Shown here: positions 1 through 30,314 of the stretch, piece after piece
How positions within the stretch are numbered: the stretch's first letter is position 1
How the letters are laid out: each line of letters begins with the position of its first letter
Source: Candidatus Gribaldobacteria bacterium
Lineage (GTDB): Bacteria > Patescibacteriota > Minisyncoccia > Minisyncoccales > CG1-02-41-26
Direction of reading: 5' to 3'
Length of the DNA stretch: 39,407 nt
Assembly: GCA_026396705.1 (NCBI GenBank)
Contig: JAPLWE010000058.1
Location: 1 to 39,407 of the forward strand
Translations under genes and position numbers: made by a program
Notes under the pieces: model-generated
What the model was told of the DNA's origin: nothing
Seen by the model: only the letters and a program-made list of their open reading frames with translations
Database searches by the model: none

Positions 1-113
1 AATGGTAAAGAGATCATCCCTACTGCAAATAATCCCCAAAGAGTTAAAACAGCTGCGATAATCAGCAGAAAATAATCAGGTAGAGATTTTTTTTTAATTA
101 CTTTTTTGTCCAT
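1..113 (-). CDS. SEDS-family protein (FtsW/RodA-like), first 37 codons only, runs off the window
   Basis: ATG at 113..111 overlaps the murD stop by 20 nt. Translation MDKKVIKKKSLPDYFLLIIAAVLTLWGLFAVGMISLP is a basic N-terminus followed by a TM helix. Its position after mraY-murD matches the conserved dcw order. Not in the ORF track because it is truncated. Confidence 0.4.
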   Translation of the reverse strand, partial: MDKKVIKKKSLPDYFLLIIAAVLTLWGLFAVGMISLP

Positions 114-1434
114 ATTTTTTTACCCATTTTTTGAACTGTTCTCCCCTGTTTTGATAATCCTTAAACATATTAAAACTGGCTGAGGCTGGCGAAAGCAAAC
201 AAATACCGTCTTTGGGCGTTTGTTGATAGCAAATCCTAACCGCCTCTTCCATACTTTGCGCTTGGAAGGAGGGAACCTCCTTCCTTTTAGGAAGGAGGTT
301 CCCTCCTTCCAGCTTGTTTACAATCTTTTGGCCAGTCCCCTGGCCTAGAATAATCAAATTTTTTACTGAGCTCTTGGCAATTTCTTTAGCTAGTAAGCTA
401 TAGTCGCTACCCTTGTCTGAACCGCCAATAATCAAAGAAATTTTTTTGTTGCTAAAAGTTTTAAGGTCTAAAATTGTTGTTTCCGGAACCGTGGCCATTG
501 AATTGTTGTAAAACTCAATGCCTTGATATTTGCCGACGAACTCTAGGCGGTGCGGTAAATTTTGGAAAGTTTTTATGGCTTTTTTAATTTTTTCTTTTTG
601 GATATTAAAGGGAGTAGTGGCTAAAACAGCGGCCAAAACATTTAAGTAATTAAACTCGCCTTGCAGGGGAATTTCTTTGAGGTTGATAATATTTTCAACT
701 ATTTTCAGCTTTGCTTTGTTAAAAGTAACTTGACGCGCTTTGCTTTGGCTGGCGATTTTTTTTACTAATGGCTCTTGGCCATTATAAACTAAAAGGTCGT
801 TTTTTGTTTGATGTATGGCTATATTTGCTTTAGCCTTGGCGTATTCCTGGAAATTAGTAAAGTAATCTAAATGATCAGAAAATAAATTTAAAAAAACAGC
901 GATTTGTGGCGATTTTTTAAGATCCCGTAACTGCTGAGCTGATATTTCATAAACCGCAATGTGGTCGGGCTTGGCGTTGAGTAGATACTGCATGACAGGA
1001 TTGCCTACATTGCCAAGAAAAAACGCTTTCAAACGAGCAGTTTTGAGAATTTGATAAATCAAACCAGAAGTGGTGCCCTTACCTTTAGTGCCAGTTACCC
1101 CAATAATCAACCCGGGAAAATTATCAAAAAATATTTCGGCCTGCGAAGTTGTTTGTAGGGAACCGAGTTCCTTACATGAAATGCCGGGGGCCTTAATAAT
1201 CAAATCATACTCCCCCGCTTTATTTAAGTAATTGTTTCCAAAATATTTTTTTAAGTTTTTATCTTTGGCTAAAATTGTTTGAACTTTTTTGTCAAAATAT
1301 TTTAATTCCTTTTTATCGGCCACTGCTAAAATCTTATGCGGAAATATTTTGCGCAAAGCCAAATAACTGTCAATCCCCTCTTTGCCCAACCCCAAAATCA
1401 AAATATTTTTATTTTCTAAATTTTCTAATTTCAT
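94..1434 (-). CDS. murD: UDP-N-acetylmuramoylalanine--D-glutamate ligase
   Basis: N-terminal Rossmann motif ILILGLGKEG, Mur-ligase P-loop GVTGTKGKGTT, C-terminal LLSPASASFNMFKDYQNRGEQF typical of MurD. Sits directly downstream of mraY. Confidence 0.85.
   Translation of the reverse strand: MKLENLENKNILILGLGKEGIDSYLALRKIFPHKILAVADKKELKYFDKKVQTILAKDKNLKKYFGNNYLNKAGEYDLIIKAPGISCKELGSLQTTSQAEIFFDNFPGLIIGVTGTKGKGTTSGLIYQILKTARLKAFFLGNVGNPVMQYLLNAKPDHIAVYEISAQQLRDLKKSPQIAVFLNLFSDHLDYFTNFQEYAKAKANIAIHQTKNDLLVYNGQEPLVKKIASQSKARQVTFNKAKLKIVENIINLKEIPLQGEFNYLNVLAAVLATTPFNIQKEKIKKAIKTFQNLPHRLEFVGKYQGIEFYNNSMATVPETTILDLKTFSNKKISLIIGGSDKGSDYSLLAKEIAKSSVKNLIILGQGTGQKIVNKLEGGNLLPKRKEVPSFQAQSMEEAVRICYQQTPKDGICLLSPASASFNMFKDYQNRGEQFKKWVKKYGQKSN
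264..310. repeat. Perfect 21-nt inverted repeat (5-nt spacer) inside the murD coding sequence
   Basis: GGAAGGAGGGAACCTCCTTCC (264..284), TTTTA, GGAAGGAGGTTCCCTCCTTCC (290..310). Each arm is itself self-complementary (GGAAGGAGG-N3-CCTCCTTCC). Read in-frame as EGGNLLPKRKEVPSF. Confidence 0.9.
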
Positions 1435-14230: not shown

Positions 14231-15994
14231 TTAATGTAGTTTCTGCAGAAGCTCAACAAACAGAGCGGAGCTCCATGCTTGACATAAGCAACCCTCGGCT
14301 TGCAGGTTGCGGGCTGAGCTTAGCTCGGAGTGATGACCCACTATTCCCTGCCAAAGAATGTCCTGCATGCTGGCTTTGGTGATTTGTTCAATATAGGGCT
14401 TAAACTTTTTTTGGTTGGCTTTAGCTAAAACCAAGGCGGCTAAATTATTGATAAAAAACCAACTATCCCCTTGATGATAACTTGCTGGGGTTTCGCCACT
14501 ATGTTCGTTGTGGAAAGTTGGGCTGTATTTATCAATGGTGGCTAGTCCGCCCCATTCTAGCCAAAGGCGAGGCAAAAGATTGGCAAAACATTTTTCCCAC
14601 TCTAGTTTTGTTAAAAGTTTTGGGTAGCTATGATAGGCTAGAAAAGCGTTGGGTCGAGCGGTAAAATCTGCTGATTGGCCATTAAAACCATCAGCCAACG
14701 CTTGGCCATTCCAGAATTTTTCTTTAATTAAAATATGGCTGTCATCTTCTAAGTTATCATAAAAAAACTTCTTGCGCCAAAATTCAAAATTTTTGGAAGC
14801 AGTATGACAAGCGGCCAGAAAAAGGGCTTGTAATTCAATGGTTGCTGGATAGCGGTCAATGGTGTCCATCCAGGTTGATCTTTGGCCGTGCCAAAATAGG
14901 TTCTGGCTGGCTGATTTTTCAAATTCTTGTATGGCTGTTAACAGAAACTTTCTATGCCATTCTTGAAAAATATCAGATCGTTTGATGGCCCAACCCCAAC
15001 CGTCGCTAGCAGAATTATTTTTTTCGCCTCTAATAATATCTCTAATAAGATTTTGCCAAATTGTTTGGCTGGTTGATTTGTTGAGCGCTTTAAGCGATGT
15101 TAAGCAAAGAGCGGTGTCTCTTTGCCAAAATTGAAAAAACCAAGGCAAGCCAGCATAAAGTCCTTTGATTTTTTTCTTTTCGTTAAACACTAAACAACTT
15201 CTAAGAGAATTTTTGGCGCAAAGATAGGCTAATTTCAATTCTGGATCTTTGATGTTGGGGCGGTTCAAAAATGGCCAAAGATTTTTTATTTCTTTTCTAG
15301 CTTTCTTTTTAAGTGATCCTAAATGTCTGGTGGCATTTTGCGCTTGTTCTATGGCTTGGTCTTTGGTTTGAGCCACCGCTAAAACTAAGCGCTGGCTATT
15401 TTTGAATTTTAAGGCTAAATAAACAGACCTTTCAAAGGGCGCTGAATTGCGGTTTTTGTCAAAAGAATAGTTTCTTTCTATCCATTGGTTGGGTCTTTCG
15501 TATATAGTGGAGTTGGCTTTAATGGCCACAAAAAATTCAGGCATAGCTTCGTCAGTTGTTTGGCATTTTATCACCACTAAACCATCTTGTTCAAAGATTT
15601 CATAAAACGAGCTGTTTTGGTTGTTGTATGATTCTTTGGCGTCAAAAAATAACTTAATGTCGCTGGCTAAAGTTGTTTCATAAACTAAAACATTTAAGAA
15701 TGATGGCGTGAAAAATGTTTCACTGGCCTCTCCCCTTTTTCTCTCTACTTGCCAAAAATTGTTTTTTATTTCGTTCACAGCCAATGAGCCTTCTATTTCA
15801 ATGTTTTCAAGAATACGAAAAATTTTATTGCCAGCTAGCCAGCTAGGAGTAAAAAACCATCCCTGATAGCGACTAGTGGGCTTTTCAGCTAGCCAAAAAT
15901 ATCCGCCCAAAAGGTTGGTCAATAAAAAACCGTTTTCTTTTTCTACATTTTTAGCTACCCTATTATTTTCGTTAAAATAATGAATTATTTTCAT
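14231..15994 (-). CDS. Glycogen debranching enzyme (amylo-alpha-1,6-glucosidase, GDE_C type)
   Basis: GLYAGLPWFFQFWQRDTALCL and a C-terminal (alpha/alpha)6-like region with QGDSWFF and CLCQAWS. ATGA overlap with the upstream GT3 gene. Confidence 0.7.
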   Translation of the reverse strand: MKIIHYFNENNRVAKNVEKENGFLLTNLLGGYFWLAEKPTSRYQGWFFTPSWLAGNKIFRILENIEIEGSLAVNEIKNNFWQVERKRGEASETFFTPSFLNVLVYETTLASDIKLFFDAKESYNNQNSSFYEIFEQDGLVVIKCQTTDEAMPEFFVAIKANSTIYERPNQWIERNYSFDKNRNSAPFERSVYLALKFKNSQRLVLAVAQTKDQAIEQAQNATRHLGSLKKKARKEIKNLWPFLNRPNIKDPELKLAYLCAKNSLRSCLVFNEKKKIKGLYAGLPWFFQFWQRDTALCLTSLKALNKSTSQTIWQNLIRDIIRGEKNNSASDGWGWAIKRSDIFQEWHRKFLLTAIQEFEKSASQNLFWHGQRSTWMDTIDRYPATIELQALFLAACHTASKNFEFWRKKFFYDNLEDDSHILIKEKFWNGQALADGFNGQSADFTARPNAFLAYHSYPKLLTKLEWEKCFANLLPRLWLEWGGLATIDKYSPTFHNEHSGETPASYHQGDSWFFINNLAALVLAKANQKKFKPYIEQITKASMQDILWQGIVGHHSELSSARNLQAEGCLCQAWSSALFVELLQKLH

Positions 15995-18080: not shown

Positions 18081-18094
18081 ATTTTTAATTTTAG

Positions 18095-18260
18095 GACTTG
18101 CGTATTTGGGGCGAAGAAATTAATTTTGCGGAGTTTCCACAGGCAAAATGCTTGGTTTGGCCAGCAGGCCAAATTTTGCCGAGGACTAAGCGAGCCGCCG
18201 CAGGAGCGGCGAGCGGCTCCGCAAAATTCAATTTCTTCGCCCCAAACATTAGCGTAAGTT
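18095..18260. repeat. GC-rich branched-palindrome element, copy C (diverged, inverted relative to A/B)
   Basis: Its reverse complement aligns end to end with copies A and B. Termini GACTTGCG.../...CGTAAGTT. All stems are retained by compensatory changes, and GCTTAGT and ACCAAGC are conserved. Confidence 0.85.
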
Positions 18261-18285
18261 GTGCGAACTTCATAAATAGCGACCT

Positions 18286-19464
18286 TTATTTCAGTTGCAG
18301 CTTTAAGTCGTTAAAGATATTCATAAAAGTAATATAGCCATCATAGGGCGATTCGTAGGGGCTGAAGTATTTATGCACATCGCCGTCAGCAAACCATTTC
18401 ACGCACATATAATAAAAATGGTCCGAGGTTTGTAGTTTTCGCCAAGTGTCCAGCAGTTTTTTGTTTTTTGTTTTTTTAATTTCATTTTCTAAGGAGTAAA
18501 TATTTTCTAGGGCGGTTTTTTGCATTTTATTGCCCAGCCACGCGGAAAGGTCTCTTTCGGTGTCAGCCCAGGTAACAATATTAGGAAAATCAAGCTCGCC
18601 TTTGGGCTTATATAATTTTATCACTTCTGAAGGATTTTGGAAATTATTTTCTGGGTATTTCAAGATTTCAGTGGGCAGGTTTTTTAAGAATTCAAAAATG
18701 CCCGTTTCTTCCCATTGGTGTTCACCGAATGTTTCATAGTCCATAAACAGATTTACTACCTCCCCATCGCCTTCGCTACCCCTGACCCAAGCGGCGAATT
18801 TTTCAGCGGTGAGAGGCCAATCTGCCCAATCACGGCAGGAAAAACGAAAAGAGATGTTGTCGCTTAGTTTATAATTGCGTAATAATAATTTGGTTGCGCC
18901 ACCGTTTTTAGCTTGATAAACGAAATTAGGGCTGCGCCAGCCCAAGATATAATCAGCCCCCTCGCCTAAAATAGCCTTATAGCCCATTTCTTCAATTTGC
19001 TTGGCCATTTGATTGTTAAGCATCAGCTCGGTGTTGCGAAAAACTTTTGGTTGAAGATTAAAGAGTTTTTTAATTTTACGGTTGTGCAAGGCCACTTGAG
19101 TTTTGAATTCTTGGGCTGAATAGAGATAAGCTAATGAATGATGATATGTTTCAGCTAAAATTTCCACACAACCAGTGGCTGTTAATTTTTGGAAATCTTC
19201 AATGACTTCGGGGAAAGACTCTTCTAATTGTTCTAGCAAAACACCGGATAAACCAAAGGCCACTTTGAATTTTCCTCGGTGTTGATGGATGAGTTGTAAA
19301 AGTAGTTTGTTGGTGGGTAAATAACTTTTGCGGGCAATGCGCTCTAAATAATTTTTATTGGCAGAGGTGTCAAAATATTCTTGGTTTTGGCCAATGTCAA
19401 AGACCGAAAAGTTTTTCAAACGAAACGGTTGATGGGTTTGTAGATATAAGCAAACTGATGGCAT
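18286..19464 (-). CDS. GH57-family alpha-glucan-active enzyme (alpha-amylase/branching-enzyme-like)
   Basis: LYLQTHQPFRL at the N-terminus, NTELML and MDYETFGEHQW. Start moved to MPSVCLYLQ (ATG 19464), because the ORF-track extension translates a repeat fragment. Confidence 0.7.
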   Translation of the reverse strand: MPSVCLYLQTHQPFRLKNFSVFDIGQNQEYFDTSANKNYLERIARKSYLPTNKLLLQLIHQHRGKFKVAFGLSGVLLEQLEESFPEVIEDFQKLTATGCVEILAETYHHSLAYLYSAQEFKTQVALHNRKIKKLFNLQPKVFRNTELMLNNQMAKQIEEMGYKAILGEGADYILGWRSPNFVYQAKNGGATKLLLRNYKLSDNISFRFSCRDWADWPLTAEKFAAWVRGSEGDGEVVNLFMDYETFGEHQWEETGIFEFLKNLPTEILKYPENNFQNPSEVIKLYKPKGELDFPNIVTWADTERDLSAWLGNKMQKTALENIYSLENEIKKTKNKKLLDTWRKLQTSDHFYYMCVKWFADGDVHKYFSPYESPYDGYITFMNIFNDLKLQLK

Positions 19465-19471
19465 AAATGTA

Positions 19472-19508
19472 GGTCTTGCGCTAATCTCGGGGTTCGCCCT
19501 CGCGCGCA
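19472..19508. repeat. Possible solo terminal fragment (F) of the palindrome family
   Basis: GGTCTTGCGCTAATCTCGGGGTTCGCC resembles the copy C termini (GACTTGCGTATTTGGGGCGAAG and AACTTACGCTAATGTTTGGGGCGAAG). GC-rich island in the 51-nt gap between genes. Confidence 0.35.
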
Positions 19509-19515
19509 AAACATA

Positions 19516-20706: not shown

Positions 20707-20785
20707 CTTTTCTATTCCGCTTACATTTATTCTGTTATTATACTGCTTTTTTTCTCTGTCAACAAAGGTGGATAACCTGCCTTTT

Positions 20786-20822
20786 CTTTGAAATTAGTTT
20801 CCTCGCCACCAAGGCGCAAGTC
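20786..20822. repeat. Solo 3'-arm fragment (D) of the palindrome family
   Basis: CTTTGAAATTAGTTTCCTCGCC is 22/22 identical to the 3' arm of A/B and ends in the family terminus GCGCAAGTC. No matching 5' arm upstream. Confidence 0.7.
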
Positions 20823-21549
20823 ATGCATTAAGTAATAACGCGGCGCCGATGGCGGAGGCATTTTGGCCTAACTTGGCTAAAGCAATTTTGGGCATTTGCG
20901 TTTTGGGCCAAAGCAAGTTTTTTGCAAGGAACTCGGTTCCTTGCAAAGAGAGGGACCGCGCGCCTGCCCCGCCCAAAATAATTATTTCTGGATTAAAAAT
21001 GTTAATTAAATTAGCCAAACCAATAGCGTTTATTTTTTCTTGTTCTTTGGGTTTATTTTTGGTTGCTTGATAAAGCTTTTCCCAGCTTTGTCCTTTATTA
21101 ATAATTATGTGGCCAACTTCACCAGAAGGGGCGGGTAAAATTTTATCGTTTATCATTAGCGCTCCCCCAATACCAGTGCCTAAAGTCACCGCTAAGATAT
21201 TGCTGTATCCTCTGCCCGCTCCAAGCATTGCTTCGGCTCGCAAGAAGCAATGAACATCATTATCTATTCTAACAATTTTATCAGGCCAAAGTTTTTTTAG
21301 ATTGAGCCCGTCTAATTGAGGCGCATTGGGGCACTTAATAATCTGACCATTGATTGCGTTAAAAATCCCCGGCACGCCAATCCCGATTTTTAGCAAGCCA
21401 TACTCCCCCACTATTGCTTTGAGATTTTCTTTATTGGGAGCGCCAGTAATTTGTTTTTGTTCAACAATTTTTTGCCCATTCCAAACAACCAAATTAATTT
21501 TCGACCCGCCAATATCCACCCCCAAAATATTTTCTTTTTTGATAGTCAT
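20821..21549 (-). CDS. ROK/ASKHA-family glucokinase-like sugar kinase
   Basis: ILGVDIGGSKINLV, GIGVPG and LGTGIGGAL. Start moved to MTIKKEN (ATG 21549). The ROK Cys-rich zinc motif is not evident. Confidence 0.65.
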   Translation of the reverse strand: MTIKKENILGVDIGGSKINLVVWNGQKIVEQKQITGAPNKENLKAIVGEYGLLKIGIGVPGIFNAINGQIIKCPNAPQLDGLNLKKLWPDKIVRIDNDVHCFLRAEAMLGAGRGYSNILAVTLGTGIGGALMINDKILPAPSGEVGHIIINKGQSWEKLYQATKNKPKEQEKINAIGLANLINIFNPEIIILGGAGARSLSLQGTEFLAKNLLWPKTQMPKIALAKLGQNASAIGAALLLNA

Positions 21550-21587
21550 TATTACTATTTGATTATTATTTAATAATAGCATAAAAC

Positions 21588-21627
21588 AAAAAATACCCGA
21601 GGGCAGATCTCCCCTCGGGTATTTTTT
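21588..21627. terminator. Bidirectional rho-independent terminator after tRNA-Lys
   Basis: ATACCCGAGGG-cagatctc-CCCTCGGGTAT (11-bp stem) flanked by A6 and T6. Minus-sense it is followed by TTTTTTGTTTT. Confidence 0.8.
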
Positions 21628-21631
21628 ATTG

Positions 21632-21704
21632 TGCCCCCACTCGGATTCGGACCGAGAACCAGCGCCTTAAAAGGGCGATGCTCTGCCAGTTGAGCTATGG
21701 GGGC
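21632..21704 (-). tRNA. tRNA-Lys (anticodon UUU), CCA not encoded
   Basis: Hand-folded cloverleaf. Acceptor GCCCCCA/TGGGGGC, D arm GCTC-AACTGGCA-GAGC, anticodon loop CTTTTAA, T arm CTCGG-TCCGAAT-CCGAG, discriminator A. Oddities are a U27-C43 mismatch and C at position 55. Confidence 0.8.
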
Positions 21705-21855: not shown

Positions 21856-22944
21856 CTACAATCCTTCCTTTCTCAACTCATTCAACAATTCTTTTTGTTT
21901 TTTTGTTAATTTTTTGGGTGTATCCACAACCAACTCTACAAACAAATCGCCTCTGCCCCAGCCGCCAAAATGCGGTATGCCTTTGCCCCCAATACGGAAC
22001 ACCTTGCCCGACTGTGTGCTTTCGGGCACTTTTAAGGAAATCTTTTTACCTTCTAGCATTTCTAATTCTATTTCGCCTCCCAAGGTTGCTAAAGAAAAGC
22101 TAATAGAATAGGTGGCCAGTAAATCGTCGCCTTTTCGTTCAAAGAGCGCATGGGGCTTGATGGCTATCCTAATATATAAATTGCCCGCTAGCCCGCCTCG
22201 TTTGCCTGCCTCCCCTGCCCCGTCTATTCTTAGTGTTTGGCCAGTATCAACGCCAGCCGGAATCACCACTTCTATTTCTTCAGTTTGGCGCAAGCGACCT
22301 TCGCCTCGACAAACATTACAGGGTTTTTTTTTTTTTTTTCCTTCGCCCTTGCGCTCTGGGCATTGCGAAAAGGTTAAAGGCCCTAGTTTTCTCATTTGTT
22401 GCACCCAGCCTGTGCTTTTGCAAGAAAAGCATTCTTTGATTTTGGTGTTGCCTTCAGCTCCTGTGCCATTACAACGAGAGCATTTAACCATTTTACTCAA
22501 AGAAACTTTTTTAGCAACATCTTTGAGCGTATCTTTCAAATCAATGGATAATTCTGTTTCGATGTCTTGGCCTTTATTTTTTGGTTTTTTTCTAGAGCCG
22601 CCTTGTTGCCCAAAGCCAAAACTGCCAAACAAATCTTCAAAGTTTAAGCCGCTAAAATCAAACCCGCTGTTTTGCCCGCCAAAAGAATTAAAATCAAACC
22701 CGCCAGCTCCCGGCCCGCCAGCGTTGCTGGCCCCTCCTTCAAATACTCGGCCAAATTGGTCGTATTGCGCTCGCTTGTCTTGGTTACTCAAAACCTGGTA
22801 GGCCTCGTTGATTTCTTTGAATTTTTTTTCATCGCCCCCTTTTTTGTCGGGGTGGTGTTGATGGGCCAGTTTACGATAAGCCTGCTTGACTTCATCTGGT
22901 GAAGCGGTTTTGTTAATGCCAAGTGTTTGATAATAATCTGACAT
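21856..22944 (-). CDS. dnaJ: Chaperone DnaJ
   Basis: J domain with HPD (HQHHPDKK), a G/F-rich region and CxxCxGxG zinc-finger repeats. Downstream of dnaK. Confidence 0.9.
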   Translation of the reverse strand: MSDYYQTLGINKTASPDEVKQAYRKLAHQHHPDKKGGDEKKFKEINEAYQVLSNQDKRAQYDQFGRVFEGGASNAGGPGAGGFDFNSFGGQNSGFDFSGLNFEDLFGSFGFGQQGGSRKKPKNKGQDIETELSIDLKDTLKDVAKKVSLSKMVKCSRCNGTGAEGNTKIKECFSCKSTGWVQQMRKLGPLTFSQCPERKGEGKKKKKPCNVCRGEGRLRQTEEIEVVIPAGVDTGQTLRIDGAGEAGKRGGLAGNLYIRIAIKPHALFERKGDDLLATYSISFSLATLGGEIELEMLEGKKISLKVPESTQSGKVFRIGGKGIPHFGGWGRGDLFVELVVDTPKKLTKKQKELLNELRKEGL

Positions 22945-25378: not shown

Positions 25379-25843
25379 TTAGCCTATTTCAAACATTTTT
25401 TCGCAAAAAGGACATCTAATGACCGAGCAGTCTTCGGGTTCGCCCAAAATAACTAGCTCTAAGTTTTTTATTGAATTGTCGTCTTTAAGCTTATTTTTAT
25501 GGCGCACTGCTTCATTAGGTTTTAATTCTCTGCCCAGGAATTGTTCCATTATCCAGCGGTGTTCGGGTAGATAGCCTCTTTTGTTGGCGTTGGGGTGGTC
25601 AGGGGCGTAAACCATGATATAGCCACTTTGGCTATCTTTGTATTTACCTCCTTTCCAATAGGGATTATTGGGGCCACTGCGGTCAGCTTCATAAGGCCTC
25701 ACTTCCCTAATTTCAAAGCGGGCTGCCCAACGAGAAATTGTGGTAATATTCACTCCGCACGAGATGGCTATCTCTGAAATAGTTAGCTCTTCGGTAAGGT
25801 ATTTTTTGCAAAGCCAATTCTTATTTTGATAATTTTTTTCCAT
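25379..25843 (-). CDS. HTH + HNH endonuclease-domain protein
   Basis: N-terminal HTH (LTISEIAISCGVNITTISRWA). HNH region GYLPEHRWIMEQ...VRHKNKLKDDNSIKNLEL. C-terminal CPFC knuckle. First gene behind the CIRCE promoter. Confidence 0.7.
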   Translation of the reverse strand: MEKNYQNKNWLCKKYLTEELTISEIAISCGVNITTISRWAARFEIREVRPYEADRSGPNNPYWKGGKYKDSQSGYIMVYAPDHPNANKRGYLPEHRWIMEQFLGRELKPNEAVRHKNKLKDDNSIKNLELVILGEPEDCSVIRCPFCEKMFEIG

Positions 25844-27745: not shown

Positions 27746-27910
27746 GGCTTGATGTTAGAGGCTCGGAAAGTTGATTTCAAAGAGACGCTCACTCGCTCCG
27801 GCGGCTCGTTCGCTTAGTTTTCGGCCTATTTTCCGCCAGTAAGCGGAACCAAGCAAATAGGCCTCAAAATACTCTTTGAAATTAGTTTCCTCGCCTCTAA
27901 CATGCAAGTC
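27746..27910. repeat. GC-rich branched-palindrome element, copy A
   Basis: About 38-nt imperfect terminal inverted repeats and two internal hairpins. Core 27779..27895 is identical to 30174..30290. Confidence 0.9.
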
Positions 27911-29405
27911 ATACAATGTTTAATAGTGATAGCAAACCGTTAGGTACACGGCTTTCTAATAGGATGATGTCGTTGGGACGGGCAATGGTTTTGATTTTTG
28001 CTAAAATTTGTTCTGGTTTTTCTAGTAATAAAATTTTATTTTCAGCCAGGCCTGCCTCCAAGGCGCCTTGTCTTAATTCTTTGAATCTGTCTTGGGTGGT
28101 GATAATTGCTAAATCGCAAATTTGGCCAATGGCTTGGCCGATTTTATAATGAATATTTTTTGAGGCTTTGCCCAGCTCTATTAAACAGGGCATAACAATA
28201 ATTTTATGCTCTTGTGGCCAAGCAGTTTTTAGATATTCTAAATGGGCCATAATGCTGGCTGGATTGGCTGAATAGGTATAATCAAGTATATTAAGGTCGT
28301 TAATCCCCTGCTTTAAGCTGTGTGAGCGAATCTTTTGGCAAGCCAAAGCGATTTCAGCCATAGTCATACCTAATGTTTTAGCCACAGCTGTAGCCATTAA
28401 AACATTGATAATATTTTGCTTACCAATGAGGTTTATCTCAAATTGCGCTTTGTCGTTATCTTTACTCAAGGCGGTAAAAGAAACTTTTTCTTTTTCTATT
28501 TTTATGTCTTCAGCCCAGATATCCGCCTTTGCTTTAGTTGAGCAGAATATTTTAGATTTCAGCTGTAGATTTGAAAATTGGTAATTGGTAATTGGTAATT
28601 TTTCATCGTCTCCATTTAGTATAGCCGTCCCCTGCTCATTCAGCGACTCTATTAACTCAAATTTTGCTTTAATAATATTTTCTTGCGAGCCAAAACAGGC
28701 CAAATGTTGTTCGTTGATGCCAGTTAACACGCCAATTTGTGGCTCAAGTATAGCGCAAACTTGTTTAATCTTCCCTCGCTGGTAGGCGCCCACTTCAGCT
28801 ATTAAAATTTGATGCTCGGGCTTGAGCTTATTAATAATTGTTTGGGCGATGCCAATTTCTGCGTTGGTGTTTTTTTCGGTTGACAATACTGAAAATTTTT
28901 CTGAAAGCATGGCTAAAAGAAAATCTTTAGTTGATGTTTTGCCATAACTGCCAGTTATAGCGATAACCGTAAGGTTTTTGAATTGTTTCCTTTTGGCTTT
29001 GGCTTTTTTCATCACATAACTTTGCCAAAGCCAAGTGGGAATTTGAAAAATTAAAATAAAGACCGAGCTGATAATTGGCAAGAAAAATAGCCAAAGCAAA
29101 ATCAGCAAGCGGAAAAGGTTGTCAGGCTGGTTGAAAATAAGCCAAAAAAAAGCCCCTTGCGAAAGAAACCAAAGATCGGCTATTAAAATTGTTTTTTTGG
29201 TAGCCAATGGCAACTTAGCGCGATACCAAGAAGCCATTAACTTTTTAATTTTTTGACCCTCAAAATGGGCGCTAAAACGACCCAAGTGATAATTTTTTAA
29301 CTGCCAGAGCCATAGCCAAAACAAAAATATCTTGGCGAAAAATAAATACCAAAAAATAGAGATAATAATTTTAATTATTTGTTCCATGGTTGCTTGTTGA
29401 GCCAA
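27909..29405 (-). CDS. murF: MurF-type Mur ligase with an N-terminal multi-TM region
   Basis: P-loop ITGSYGKTSTK at aa ~151, then NTNAEIGIAQTI and a Mur-ligase C-terminal domain. The first ~135 aa are three hydrophobic W/F/L-rich segments. An alternative start at M7 (29387) is possible. Confidence 0.75.
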   Translation of the reverse strand: MAQQATMEQIIKIIISIFWYLFFAKIFLFWLWLWQLKNYHLGRFSAHFEGQKIKKLMASWYRAKLPLATKKTILIADLWFLSQGAFFWLIFNQPDNLFRLLILLWLFFLPIISSVFILIFQIPTWLWQSYVMKKAKAKRKQFKNLTVIAITGSYGKTSTKDFLLAMLSEKFSVLSTEKNTNAEIGIAQTIINKLKPEHQILIAEVGAYQRGKIKQVCAILEPQIGVLTGINEQHLACFGSQENIIKAKFELIESLNEQGTAILNGDDEKLPITNYQFSNLQLKSKIFCSTKAKADIWAEDIKIEKEKVSFTALSKDNDKAQFEINLIGKQNIINVLMATAVAKTLGMTMAEIALACQKIRSHSLKQGINDLNILDYTYSANPASIMAHLEYLKTAWPQEHKIIVMPCLIELGKASKNIHYKIGQAIGQICDLAIITTQDRFKELRQGALEAGLAENKILLLEKPEQILAKIKTIARPNDIILLESRVPNGLLSLLNIV

Positions 29406-30117: not shown

Positions 30118-30136
30118 TGCGTTTTTTTTAATTCAA

Positions 30137-30304
30137 ACTTATGTGGTTGTTAGTGGCTCGGAAGACTAATTTTAAAGAGACGCTCACTCGCTCCGGCGGC
30201 TCGTTCGCTTAGTTTTCGGCCTATTTTCCGCCAGTAAGCGGAACCAAGCAAATAGGCCTCAAAATACTCTTTGAAATTAGTTTCCTCGCCCCTAACCAGT
30301 AGTC
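30137..30304. repeat. GC-rich branched-palindrome element, copy B
   Basis: Same architecture and orientation as copy A. Core 30174..30290 is identical to A. The aligned 25-nt segments of the two 5' arms differ only by 5 transitions. Confidence 0.9.
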
Positions 30305-30314
30305 TGCGATAATT

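Follow-up and report, generated by a model that had tools for sequence, protein, structure and literature searches.

A covarying palindromic element in a Patescibacteria contig, probably a family of interspersed repeats

The window, i.e., the whole stretch of 39,407 nt that was analysed, carries mostly minus-strand housekeeping genes (Mur ligases, aminoacyl-tRNA synthetases, dnaK/dnaJ/grpE and a glycogen cluster), and the glycogen synthase encoded here shares ≥90% identity clusters with proteins from Candidatus Gribaldobacteria and Parcubacteria MAGs. Within this gene set we studied a palindromic element. Copy C, from which the analysis started, lies between the stop of a GH57 gene (18286) and the start of a 90-aa DUF5752 gene (18080). 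Copy A is found between the stop of a Mur-ligase gene and an ftsQ-like gene, and copy B between an alpha/beta-hydrolase gene and serS. The respective features are as follows.

18087..18263, minus strand: copy C, the full palindromic element, C-type subfamily (CM R1 match 18106-18245, 139.8 bits; nhmmer 18263-18087)
18095..18133, no strand: outer-stem arm of C, from the folds; its partner arm is 18217-18260
18217..18260, no strand: second outer-stem arm of C, from the folds
18112-18116 (CGAAG), paired with 18235-18239 (CTTCG): 5-bp box in the C arm, with compensated variation among otherwise identical C-type copies
18142..18180, minus strand: large inner hairpin P3 of C, base GGCAAAAT/ATTTTGCC, tip TTGGCC(tgct)GGCCAA, with ACCAAGC as a 7-nt 3'-side bulge
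18150..18156, minus strand: conserved 7-mer ACCAAGC (plus strand reads GCTTGGT)
18185..18191, minus strand: conserved 7-mer GCTTAGT (plus strand reads ACTAAGC)
18190..18217, minus strand: P2, the smaller of the two inner hairpins of C; its loop TCCTGCG is conserved (conservation in 13 subfamily representatives; helices 2-4)
19471..19510, minus strand: perhaps what is left of a degenerated element terminus, in the gap between GT4 and GH57; weak, without nhmmer match
20785..20829, plus strand: truncated copy D, of which the A-type 3' arm and terminus alone are left (nhmmer E=4.6e-6)
27749..27919, plus strand: copy A, A-type subfamily (CM 150.8 bits; nhmmer)
30133..30305, plus strand: copy B, A-type, 95% identical to A

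Some of these copies reach into neighbouring genes, i.e., the TGA stop of the Mur-ligase gene (27909-27911) falls in the terminus of copy A, and copy D provides the TGA stop (20821-20823) of the ROK gene. At the position of copy D, relatives (loci L041-L044) carry a terminator-like hairpin instead: when window 20707-20820 is set against L041 985-1124, a perfect terminator-like hairpin follows the ROK gene in the relatives, where the window has copy D. A TTGACA/TATAAT promoter-like pair is present 5' of the GT4 gene in both the window and the relatives. In window 19462-19512, the TTG start listed for the GH57 ORF (19509) is probably wrong; orthologues begin at ATG 19464 (MPSVC...), and the ~40 nt upstream of this ATG resemble a decayed element terminus.

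Other stretches of the window were considered as family members and rejected. That is, the CM/repeat match at 262-312 is a perfect palindrome of another type, the one at 21577-21636 is an ordinary hairpin resembling a terminator, and the repeat match at 22812-22839 is dnaJ coding sequence. At 263-311, a 49-nt near-perfect palindrome (TGGAAGGAGGGAACCTCCTTCC TTTTA GGAAGGAGGTTCCCTCCTTCCA) is located inside the Mur-ligase ORF 94..1434 (minus strand); this seems to be a gene-internal palindromic insert of another type. Between grpE and corA there is a free-standing HNH_3 endonuclease gene (25379-25843), which showed no connection with the repeats.

Copy C (18095-18260), taken in minus-strand orientation, can be aligned over its full length with A (27753-27901) and B (30148-30296). 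The first-pass annotation had estimated the identity at ~60% by eye; global alignment yields 66% for A-C and 67% for B-C, and A and B are direct repeats with 95% identity. The four stem pairs quoted for A and C could be verified with the letters as claimed. The outer stem is ATTTCAAAGAG/CTCTTTGAAAT in A vs. AATTTTGCGGAG/CTCCGCAAAATT in C, the distal stem GAGGC/GCCTC vs. GGGGC/GCCCC, the hairpin base GGCCTATTT/AAATAGGCC vs. GGCAAAAT/ATTTTGCC, and the hairpin tip TCCGC..GCGGA vs. TTGGCC..GGCCAA. Copy C is also inverted with respect to A and B, as had been described, and the flanking genes are all on the minus strand. Location and stems were given correctly, while the extent turned out too short: the nhmmer matches cover 18087-18263 for C, 27749-27919 for A and 30133-30305 for B. 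Relative to an empty orthologous site, the indel spans window ~18093-18275, i.e., the alignment to the empty loci breaks at 18092/18276.

Two 7-mers are shared by A, B and C (3/3) and are complementary at 6/7 positions, in agreement with the earlier description, namely GCTTAGT (18185-18191 in C, in plus-strand coordinates, and 27812-27818 in A) and ACCAAGC (18150-18156 in C, in plus-strand coordinates, and 27848-27854 in A). Both had been taken as unpaired. This needs a correction for GCTTAGT, which is not wholly unpaired since the consensus fold has its bases 1-2 paired at the base of the small hairpin.

Each copy shows the same architecture, i.e., a long outer stem formed by terminal inverted repeats and a three-way junction with two hairpins. 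The MFE z-scores range from -6.2 to -11.0 when folded as RNA, in either strand, and the value for DNA is -9.3, which is far beyond chance. As a model-free check, we aligned 7 sequences with MAFFT and applied RNAalifold. Here, 45 pairs are found, 22/45 of them with a change on both sides. We also assessed an alignment of 31 copies (the window plus 27 loci), which was fitted to the CM and thus leans to the structure: 92.4% of its cells pair, compared to 34-54% when the partners are slid by 1-3 columns, both-side changes are observed in 34/45 pairs, and 0/500 shuffles match any observed covariation measure. The model-free result from the 7 sequences agrees. The claim that the stems are kept by compensatory change therefore holds in the larger alignment as well (34/45 pairs, 92.4% of cells). 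Within the large hairpin P3, helices 6-8 of the 31-copy alignment are paired at 87-98% and show both-side changes in 7/11 pairs. The small hairpin P2 is expanded by ~80 nt in some other copies.

Across 13 diverged representatives, the conserved letters are mostly unpaired or part of the junction (CGCTC, loop TCC-GCG, TCGCTTAGT, TCGGC, ACCAAGC and GCCT); conservation of the junction and of one loop comprises CGCTC, loop TCCTGCG, TCGCTTAGTnnTCGGC, ACCAAGC and GCCT. The arms are ~40 nt long, pair end to end, and end in termini (RACTTRCGC / GCGYAAGTY) that co-vary between copies. Variation within a subfamily is concentrated in compensated arm boxes of 4-5 bp, both for C-type copies (CGAAG/CTTCG, CAAGG/CCTTG, TTCGG/CCGAA) and for A-type copies (GTTAG/CTAAC, GATAA/TTATC, AATAA/TTATT). 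In the copies of L008, L009, L010, L017, L018, L021 and L022, these arm boxes vary far more than the 115-nt core. It is possible that such arm-box variation results from hairpin-templated correction or from a constraint on pairing only.

As a side observation, the inner arms, e.g., window 27780-27786 and 27874-27880, read CAAAGAG/CAAGGAG or GCGGAG, which is Shine-Dalgarno-like, and are paired with CTCCTTG or CTCCGC, which is anti-SD-like. The loop of the small hairpin reads GGAG on the opposite strand; the SD likeness may be coincidental.

Given the complementarity of the two 7-mers, a pseudoknot between them had been proposed. Both 7-mers are intact in 25/29 copies, where the 25 intact ones came from a pattern that demands both 7-mers, such that the sample is biased to conserved cores. 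The 4 copies that were found without this pattern all show changes in one or both 7-mers (4/4), i.e., ACCATGC in L032, ACTTAGT and ACCGAGC in L022:3444, AACAAGC in L008:2260, and GCTCTGT in L038. Every change in the 4 variants weakens the pairing in either strand and none is compensated, which speaks against GCTTAGT pairing with ACCAAGC. By standard pseudoknot geometry, an H-type knot would also be sterically poor, as no linker separates ACCAAGC from the 3'-side strand of the hairpin base. The 7-mers are strongly, not absolutely, conserved and read better as a sequence-specific recognition motif, i.e., an imperfect inverted repeat GCTTRGT/ACYAAGC around the hairpin.

Next to the fold itself, we evaluated whether the copies mark one strand as the RNA. 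G-U is found in 21 pairs and A-C in 21 pairs (52 vs. 34 cells). This is balanced, i.e., no RNA strand is marked. Relative to co-directional flanking genes, copies are found in both orientations, and they almost always occupy short intergenic gaps in which they abut gene ends.

To describe the family, a pattern on the conserved centre was compared with the GTDB species genomes, which provided 4 true members, all of them in Patescibacteria MAGs, and 2 chance matches. For the latter, the CM gave nothing in L001 (Erythrobacter) and an unrelated low-score hairpin alone in L006 (Saprospirales). The same centre-pattern approach yielded 23 metagenome contigs. A CM built from 7 sequences recognised 31 copies, including two that the pattern had missed, with scores of 130-150 bits for most complete copies. 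Further copies in L030-L032 and L038 were obtained via peptide and MnmA-based look-ups. The copies are spread over ~20 distinct sites in both orientations relative to the flanking genes, and their hosts are Patescibacteria MAGs, Gribaldobacteria-like, Nomurabacteria and Paceibacterota, i.e., some of the ultra-small bacteria of groundwater. Element size is ~150-190 bp and at most ~270 bp with the expansion. The subfamilies are A-type, C-type, A-type with the ~80-nt expansion of the small hairpin, GC-rich/divergent forms (L029, L016, L024), and forms embedded in mnmA. We also considered the ~80-nt P2 expansion as an independent nested element and rejected this, as it was seen only inside this repeat family in the DNA examined.

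No copies were found among IMG/VR viral contigs, GenBank phages and PLSDB plasmids. No conserved ORF and no protein-coding capacity was found for the element. At the gathering threshold, no Rfam family matches the copies, the sole pass in the window being a tRNA-Lys, and with E up to 10 the copies give miRNA/snoRNA noise alone, far below threshold.

Copies located inside a gene were observed for mnmA, i.e., in L002 (2741-2893), L005 (604-756) and L038 (1583-1727), in each case between the TGHY and KDQSYF motifs. These inserts are in frame without stop codons, split the Pfam HUP domain into two matched stretches, and would contribute insert peptides such as RLVLGASSSREVLLTTPSYAPAEASK. The hairpins of L002 and L005 differ by a compensatory pair (GTCGTC/GACGAC vs. 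GTTGTC/GACAAC). MnmA proteins that are 83% identical to that of L002 keep 'APAEAS' alone, and another one with 76% identity is without the insert. In the AlphaFold model of the MnmA protein P0008 (mean pLDDT 74), the insert is placed between strands 129-133 and 179-183, and its residues 135-176 show pLDDT values below 50 (~30) and no secondary structure. The predicted model thus fits a tolerated surface loop.

In patescibacterial MnmA, inserts recur in the TGHY...KDQSYF segment, a hot spot that is 24-72 residues long and has at least 5 insert types, several of them unrelated. Two other insert types that were examined (L039, L040) are palindromic at the DNA level, too. The three DNA-level examples of mnmA inserts are all long palindromes whose outer stems are alike by eye (GAAAATA-TT / AA-TATTTTC). 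Peptide searches with two reading frames of the element for other in-ORF insertions returned tiny ORFs only, i.e., no in-ORF copies beyond mnmA were found by this route.

A comparison with related genomes shows that sites are gained, lost and flipped. The C site is empty in L015 and in L041-L044 (four assemblies of one relative; 82-87% nt identity), where 4 nt correspond to 18093-18275. It is filled in L013, and in L008 it is filled with the whole element inverted. Between GT4 and GH57, i.e., at 19471-19510, L015 and L008 hold a full copy where the window has at most a 40-nt stub. The density differs, with 3 full copies in the 39-kb window vs. none in the orthologous region of the relatives.

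The central 120 nt of the window copy are identical to L013 (120/120) and match the inverted copy of L008 at 119/120 positions; adjacent coding DNA is 83-90% identical, and the flanking genes are 83-87% identical to those of L013. With such a frozen core, the copies must have spread recently, been homogenised among each other, or be under very strong constraint. That the element is not simply decaying junk, as argued in the first-pass annotation, is supported by this 120-nt core, which is identical between genomes with flanking genes that differ by 13-17%.

The copy in L020 combines arms of two different variants, and its right flank is common to the C-type copy of L025. That is, L020 75-218 (A-type) and L025 1254-1393 (C-type) have the same right flank and different left flanks. 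Judged by these flanks and the mixed arms, ectopic recombination between copies is suggested as the likely origin. The repeat is also visible at the level of assembly: nine Logan contigs with the exact FtsQ of the window were read, and 5/5 among those listed (L033-L037, independent assemblies of this strain, position 1-44) end inside copy A, as would be expected for a repeat that is not crossable by assemblers.

With regard to signs of transposition, no direct repeat that would represent a target-site duplication was found in 9 copies with recognisable termini nor in the comparison of filled and empty sites, where exact ends are uncertain. No transposase or recombinase domain was detected in any ORF of the window nor in the called genes of L030 and L041-L044, and no autonomous IS with the same termini was found in the DNA examined.

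Taken together, we consider it probable that copies A, B and C are a non-coding, non-autonomous interspersed palindromic repeat, i.e., a MITE-like element of the bcr1/ERIC/Correia/RPE kind. The copies are found at many unrelated sites in either orientation, and gain, loss and flips are seen between close relatives. They appear to recombine, leave truncated remnants, persist in frame in an essential gene, and form subfamilies that differ by compensation. The earlier suggestion of an orientation-independent role is favoured by the data in this very sense, i.e., as an interspersed palindromic DNA repeat. In terms of MITE features, we find terminal inverted repeats of ~40 nt in a small, non-coding element with at least 31 copies and insertion polymorphism; strict membership in the MITE class is not established, as neither a duplication nor a parent IS was found.

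A mechanism can be sketched for such a repeat. Only copies that fold as a hairpin or cruciform, in ssDNA or RNA, and that present the junction and loop motifs would be propagated or homogenised by a trans-acting enzyme. The fold and the 7-mers would then persist between subfamilies because propagation or homogenisation needs the folded form and the motifs. After insertion, the element would ride in the polycistronic transcripts of its neighbours, where its ~40-bp stem would form an orientation-independent dsRNA, which is a plausible RNase III substrate and might have incidental effects on expression. We infer the mobility mechanism, since neither a target-site duplication nor a partner transposase was found.

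The closest parallel in architecture is bcr1 of the Bacillus cereus group (Okstad 2004, Klevan 2007). It is described as a ~155 bp, cruciform-like repeat whose two independent stem-loops are maintained through compensatory changes; its distribution is not conserved between related strains, and it has flanking 5-bp direct repeats and is transcribed (PMC3184786). The element studied here resembles bcr1 (~155 bp) in being non-coding, interspersed and strain-variable, and its stem and two stem-loops show compensatory changes, too. It differs in that no direct repeats are seen in place of the 5-bp ones and the host phylum is unrelated; transcription has been demonstrated for bcr1 and is proposed for the present element.

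ERIC and Correia (NEMIS) elements are MITE-like repeats of Enterobacteria and Neisseria, i.e., imperfect palindromes of 100-200 bp that are intergenic, occur in either orientation and are co-transcribed with their neighbours (PMC10969869). They show size variants with internal insertions, and Correia elements can invert in place and are cleaved by RNase III (PMC10969869). The present element shares the imperfect palindrome, the intergenic location in either orientation and the size variants, and it occurs inverted at one orthologous site. Unlike Correia, with its TA duplication and its IHF and promoter boxes, we observe no duplication and no clear promoter. Furthermore, not only the termini are conserved here, in contrast to ERIC/Correia; the conserved part is the asymmetric centre, i.e., junction and loop.

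The copies within mnmA recall RPE of Rickettsia (Ogata 2000), which are described as palindromic repeats of ~100-150 bp in a reduced genome that can lie in frame in housekeeping genes and be translated as an extra loop (PMC10969869, PMC3184786). Similarly, the mnmA copies are in frame and open and are predicted to add an extra loop; this is an analogy of behaviour, and no sequence membership is claimed. In-frame insertion is frequent for RPE, whereas one gene (mnmA) was found here and most copies are intergenic.

For REP/BIME with RAYT and for palindromes derived from IS200/IS605, a trans-acting HUH enzyme recognises a folded ssDNA hairpin together with short conserved unpaired bases; in the DNA examined here, no Y1/HUH gene was seen. 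REPs are 20-40 nt long with a GTAG head, and the ends of IS200/IS605 are not one long palindrome. The working idea of a structure that is preserved while the sequence drifts is shared; size and form of the ends differ from this repeat.

Our literature search found no paper describing interspersed palindromic repeats in CPR/Patescibacteria. The family is new and the kind of element known, with no earlier description found for this host group. CPR/Patescibacteria genomes are streamlined at ~1 Mb and can host proliferating selfish repeats. These repeats break assemblies, give neighbours stop codons, replace terminators and extend an essential tRNA-modification enzyme. The family thereby serves as a marker of strain-level variation and is a known cause of contig breaks in these MAGs.

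A counterpoint to the repeat reading is that the extreme core identity and the asymmetric conserved junction and hairpin loop exceed what is usual for simple MITEs. Both would fit a host-selected function. More specifically, the asymmetric core (loop TCCTGCG, CGCTC, TCGCTTAGTnnTCGGC and the bulge ACCAAGC) might be a folded nucleic acid that is recognised by a dedicated CPR protein, which would make the element a new class of structure-dependent mobile module. We put this forward tentatively, as a minority option. The partner would be, e.g., a single-strand-DNA transposase, a recombinase or an RNA-binding partner, and the arm boxes as well as the whole-element flip would be by-products of hairpin-templated copying. 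If it is true that the conserved core is the recognition site of a specific enzyme, this would point to a new mobility system of CPR.

Further explanations for the conserved fold do without a mobile repeat. Three of them, i.e., an RNA gene, a DNA site of the host and an intron-like sequence, agree less well than an interspersed repeat with the polymorphic sites, the inverted copy, the copies within ORFs and the missing strand bias. The copies might be a multi-copy structured ncRNA gene or a cis-regulatory RNA, whose junction and loops bind a protein or ligand, with an own promoter per copy to explain the mixed orientation. The first-pass annotation had argued for a functional folded nucleic acid. 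The strong covariation in all helices, the conservation of unpaired letters in junction and loop among 13 diverged representatives, and a core that is frozen while the flanks have diverged are all what such an RNA would display; many functional RNAs also tolerate an expansion of a peripheral hairpin, as seen here with ~80 nt. Several observations oppose it nevertheless. The wobble pairs (G-U/A-C) are without strand bias, and copies occur in both orientations with no conserved promoter or terminator, i.e., promoter-like matches are weak in A-type arms and absent at C. Close relatives lack the element at this site, L008 holds it inverted, some copies are in frame in mnmA or truncated, and Rfam provides no match even with E up to 10. 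A dedicated functional RNA is thus an unlikely explanation.

Alternatively, the element could be a DNA site of the host, at which, e.g., a nucleoid protein, invertase, primosome or replication factor recognises a cruciform carrying GCTTRGT / ACYAAGC as inverted half-sites, for binding or recombination. The strand-symmetric behaviour agrees with this idea, and so do the 7-mers forming an imperfect inverted repeat that flanks the hairpin, the flip of the whole element at one site, and a fold that is equally stable with DNA parameters. A required site is opposed by presence/absence in close relatives and by the in-ORF copies, the density is very uneven (3 full copies per 39 kb vs. none in the orthologous region of relatives), and no associated recombinase gene was seen. 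We rate such a site as rather improbable.

An excised intervening sequence, i.e., a small intron-like element that splices itself or is processed by an endonuclease and joins the flanks by its long stem, would account for the location inside mnmA, and the long stem does juxtapose both junctions. All examined mnmA inserts are in frame without stops, as translation would require and splicing would not. Given also that no ribozyme family matches and most copies are intergenic in both orientations, we deem it very improbable. Finally, chance resemblance or an unconstrained decaying duplicate, for which nothing speaks but the low A-C identity (66%), is refuted by the z-scores (-6.2 to -11.0), the shuffles (0/500) and the CM scores (130-150 bits for most complete copies).

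A number of more specific candidates were tried and rejected. A hammerhead-like CTGATG...GAAA in the left arm has no CM support. An intrinsic terminator was discarded since no U-run follows the stem in either strand and respective scans gave sub-hairpins alone. For a promoter, weak outward TTGAAA-N16/17-TAACAT matches are found in A-type arms and none in C. A composite transposon with A and B as its ends and the Mur-ligase and hydrolase genes in between was dismissed: these are housekeeping genes, and the element pair in L022 flanks different ORFs. Integron attC sites are defined by 5' RYYYAAC ... GTTRRRY 3' core sites, cassettes in one orientation and a nearby intI; here, the termini GTTAGRG...CYCTAAC are in opposite order, the orientation is mixed and there is no integrase.

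Palindromes of other kinds are seen in the same neighbourhood. In L041 (5658-5791; also L042-L044), an unrelated palindromic element of 134 nt lies between the gene for glycogen synthase and that for GDE; in the window, the two genes have 4 nt in common instead (15991-15994).
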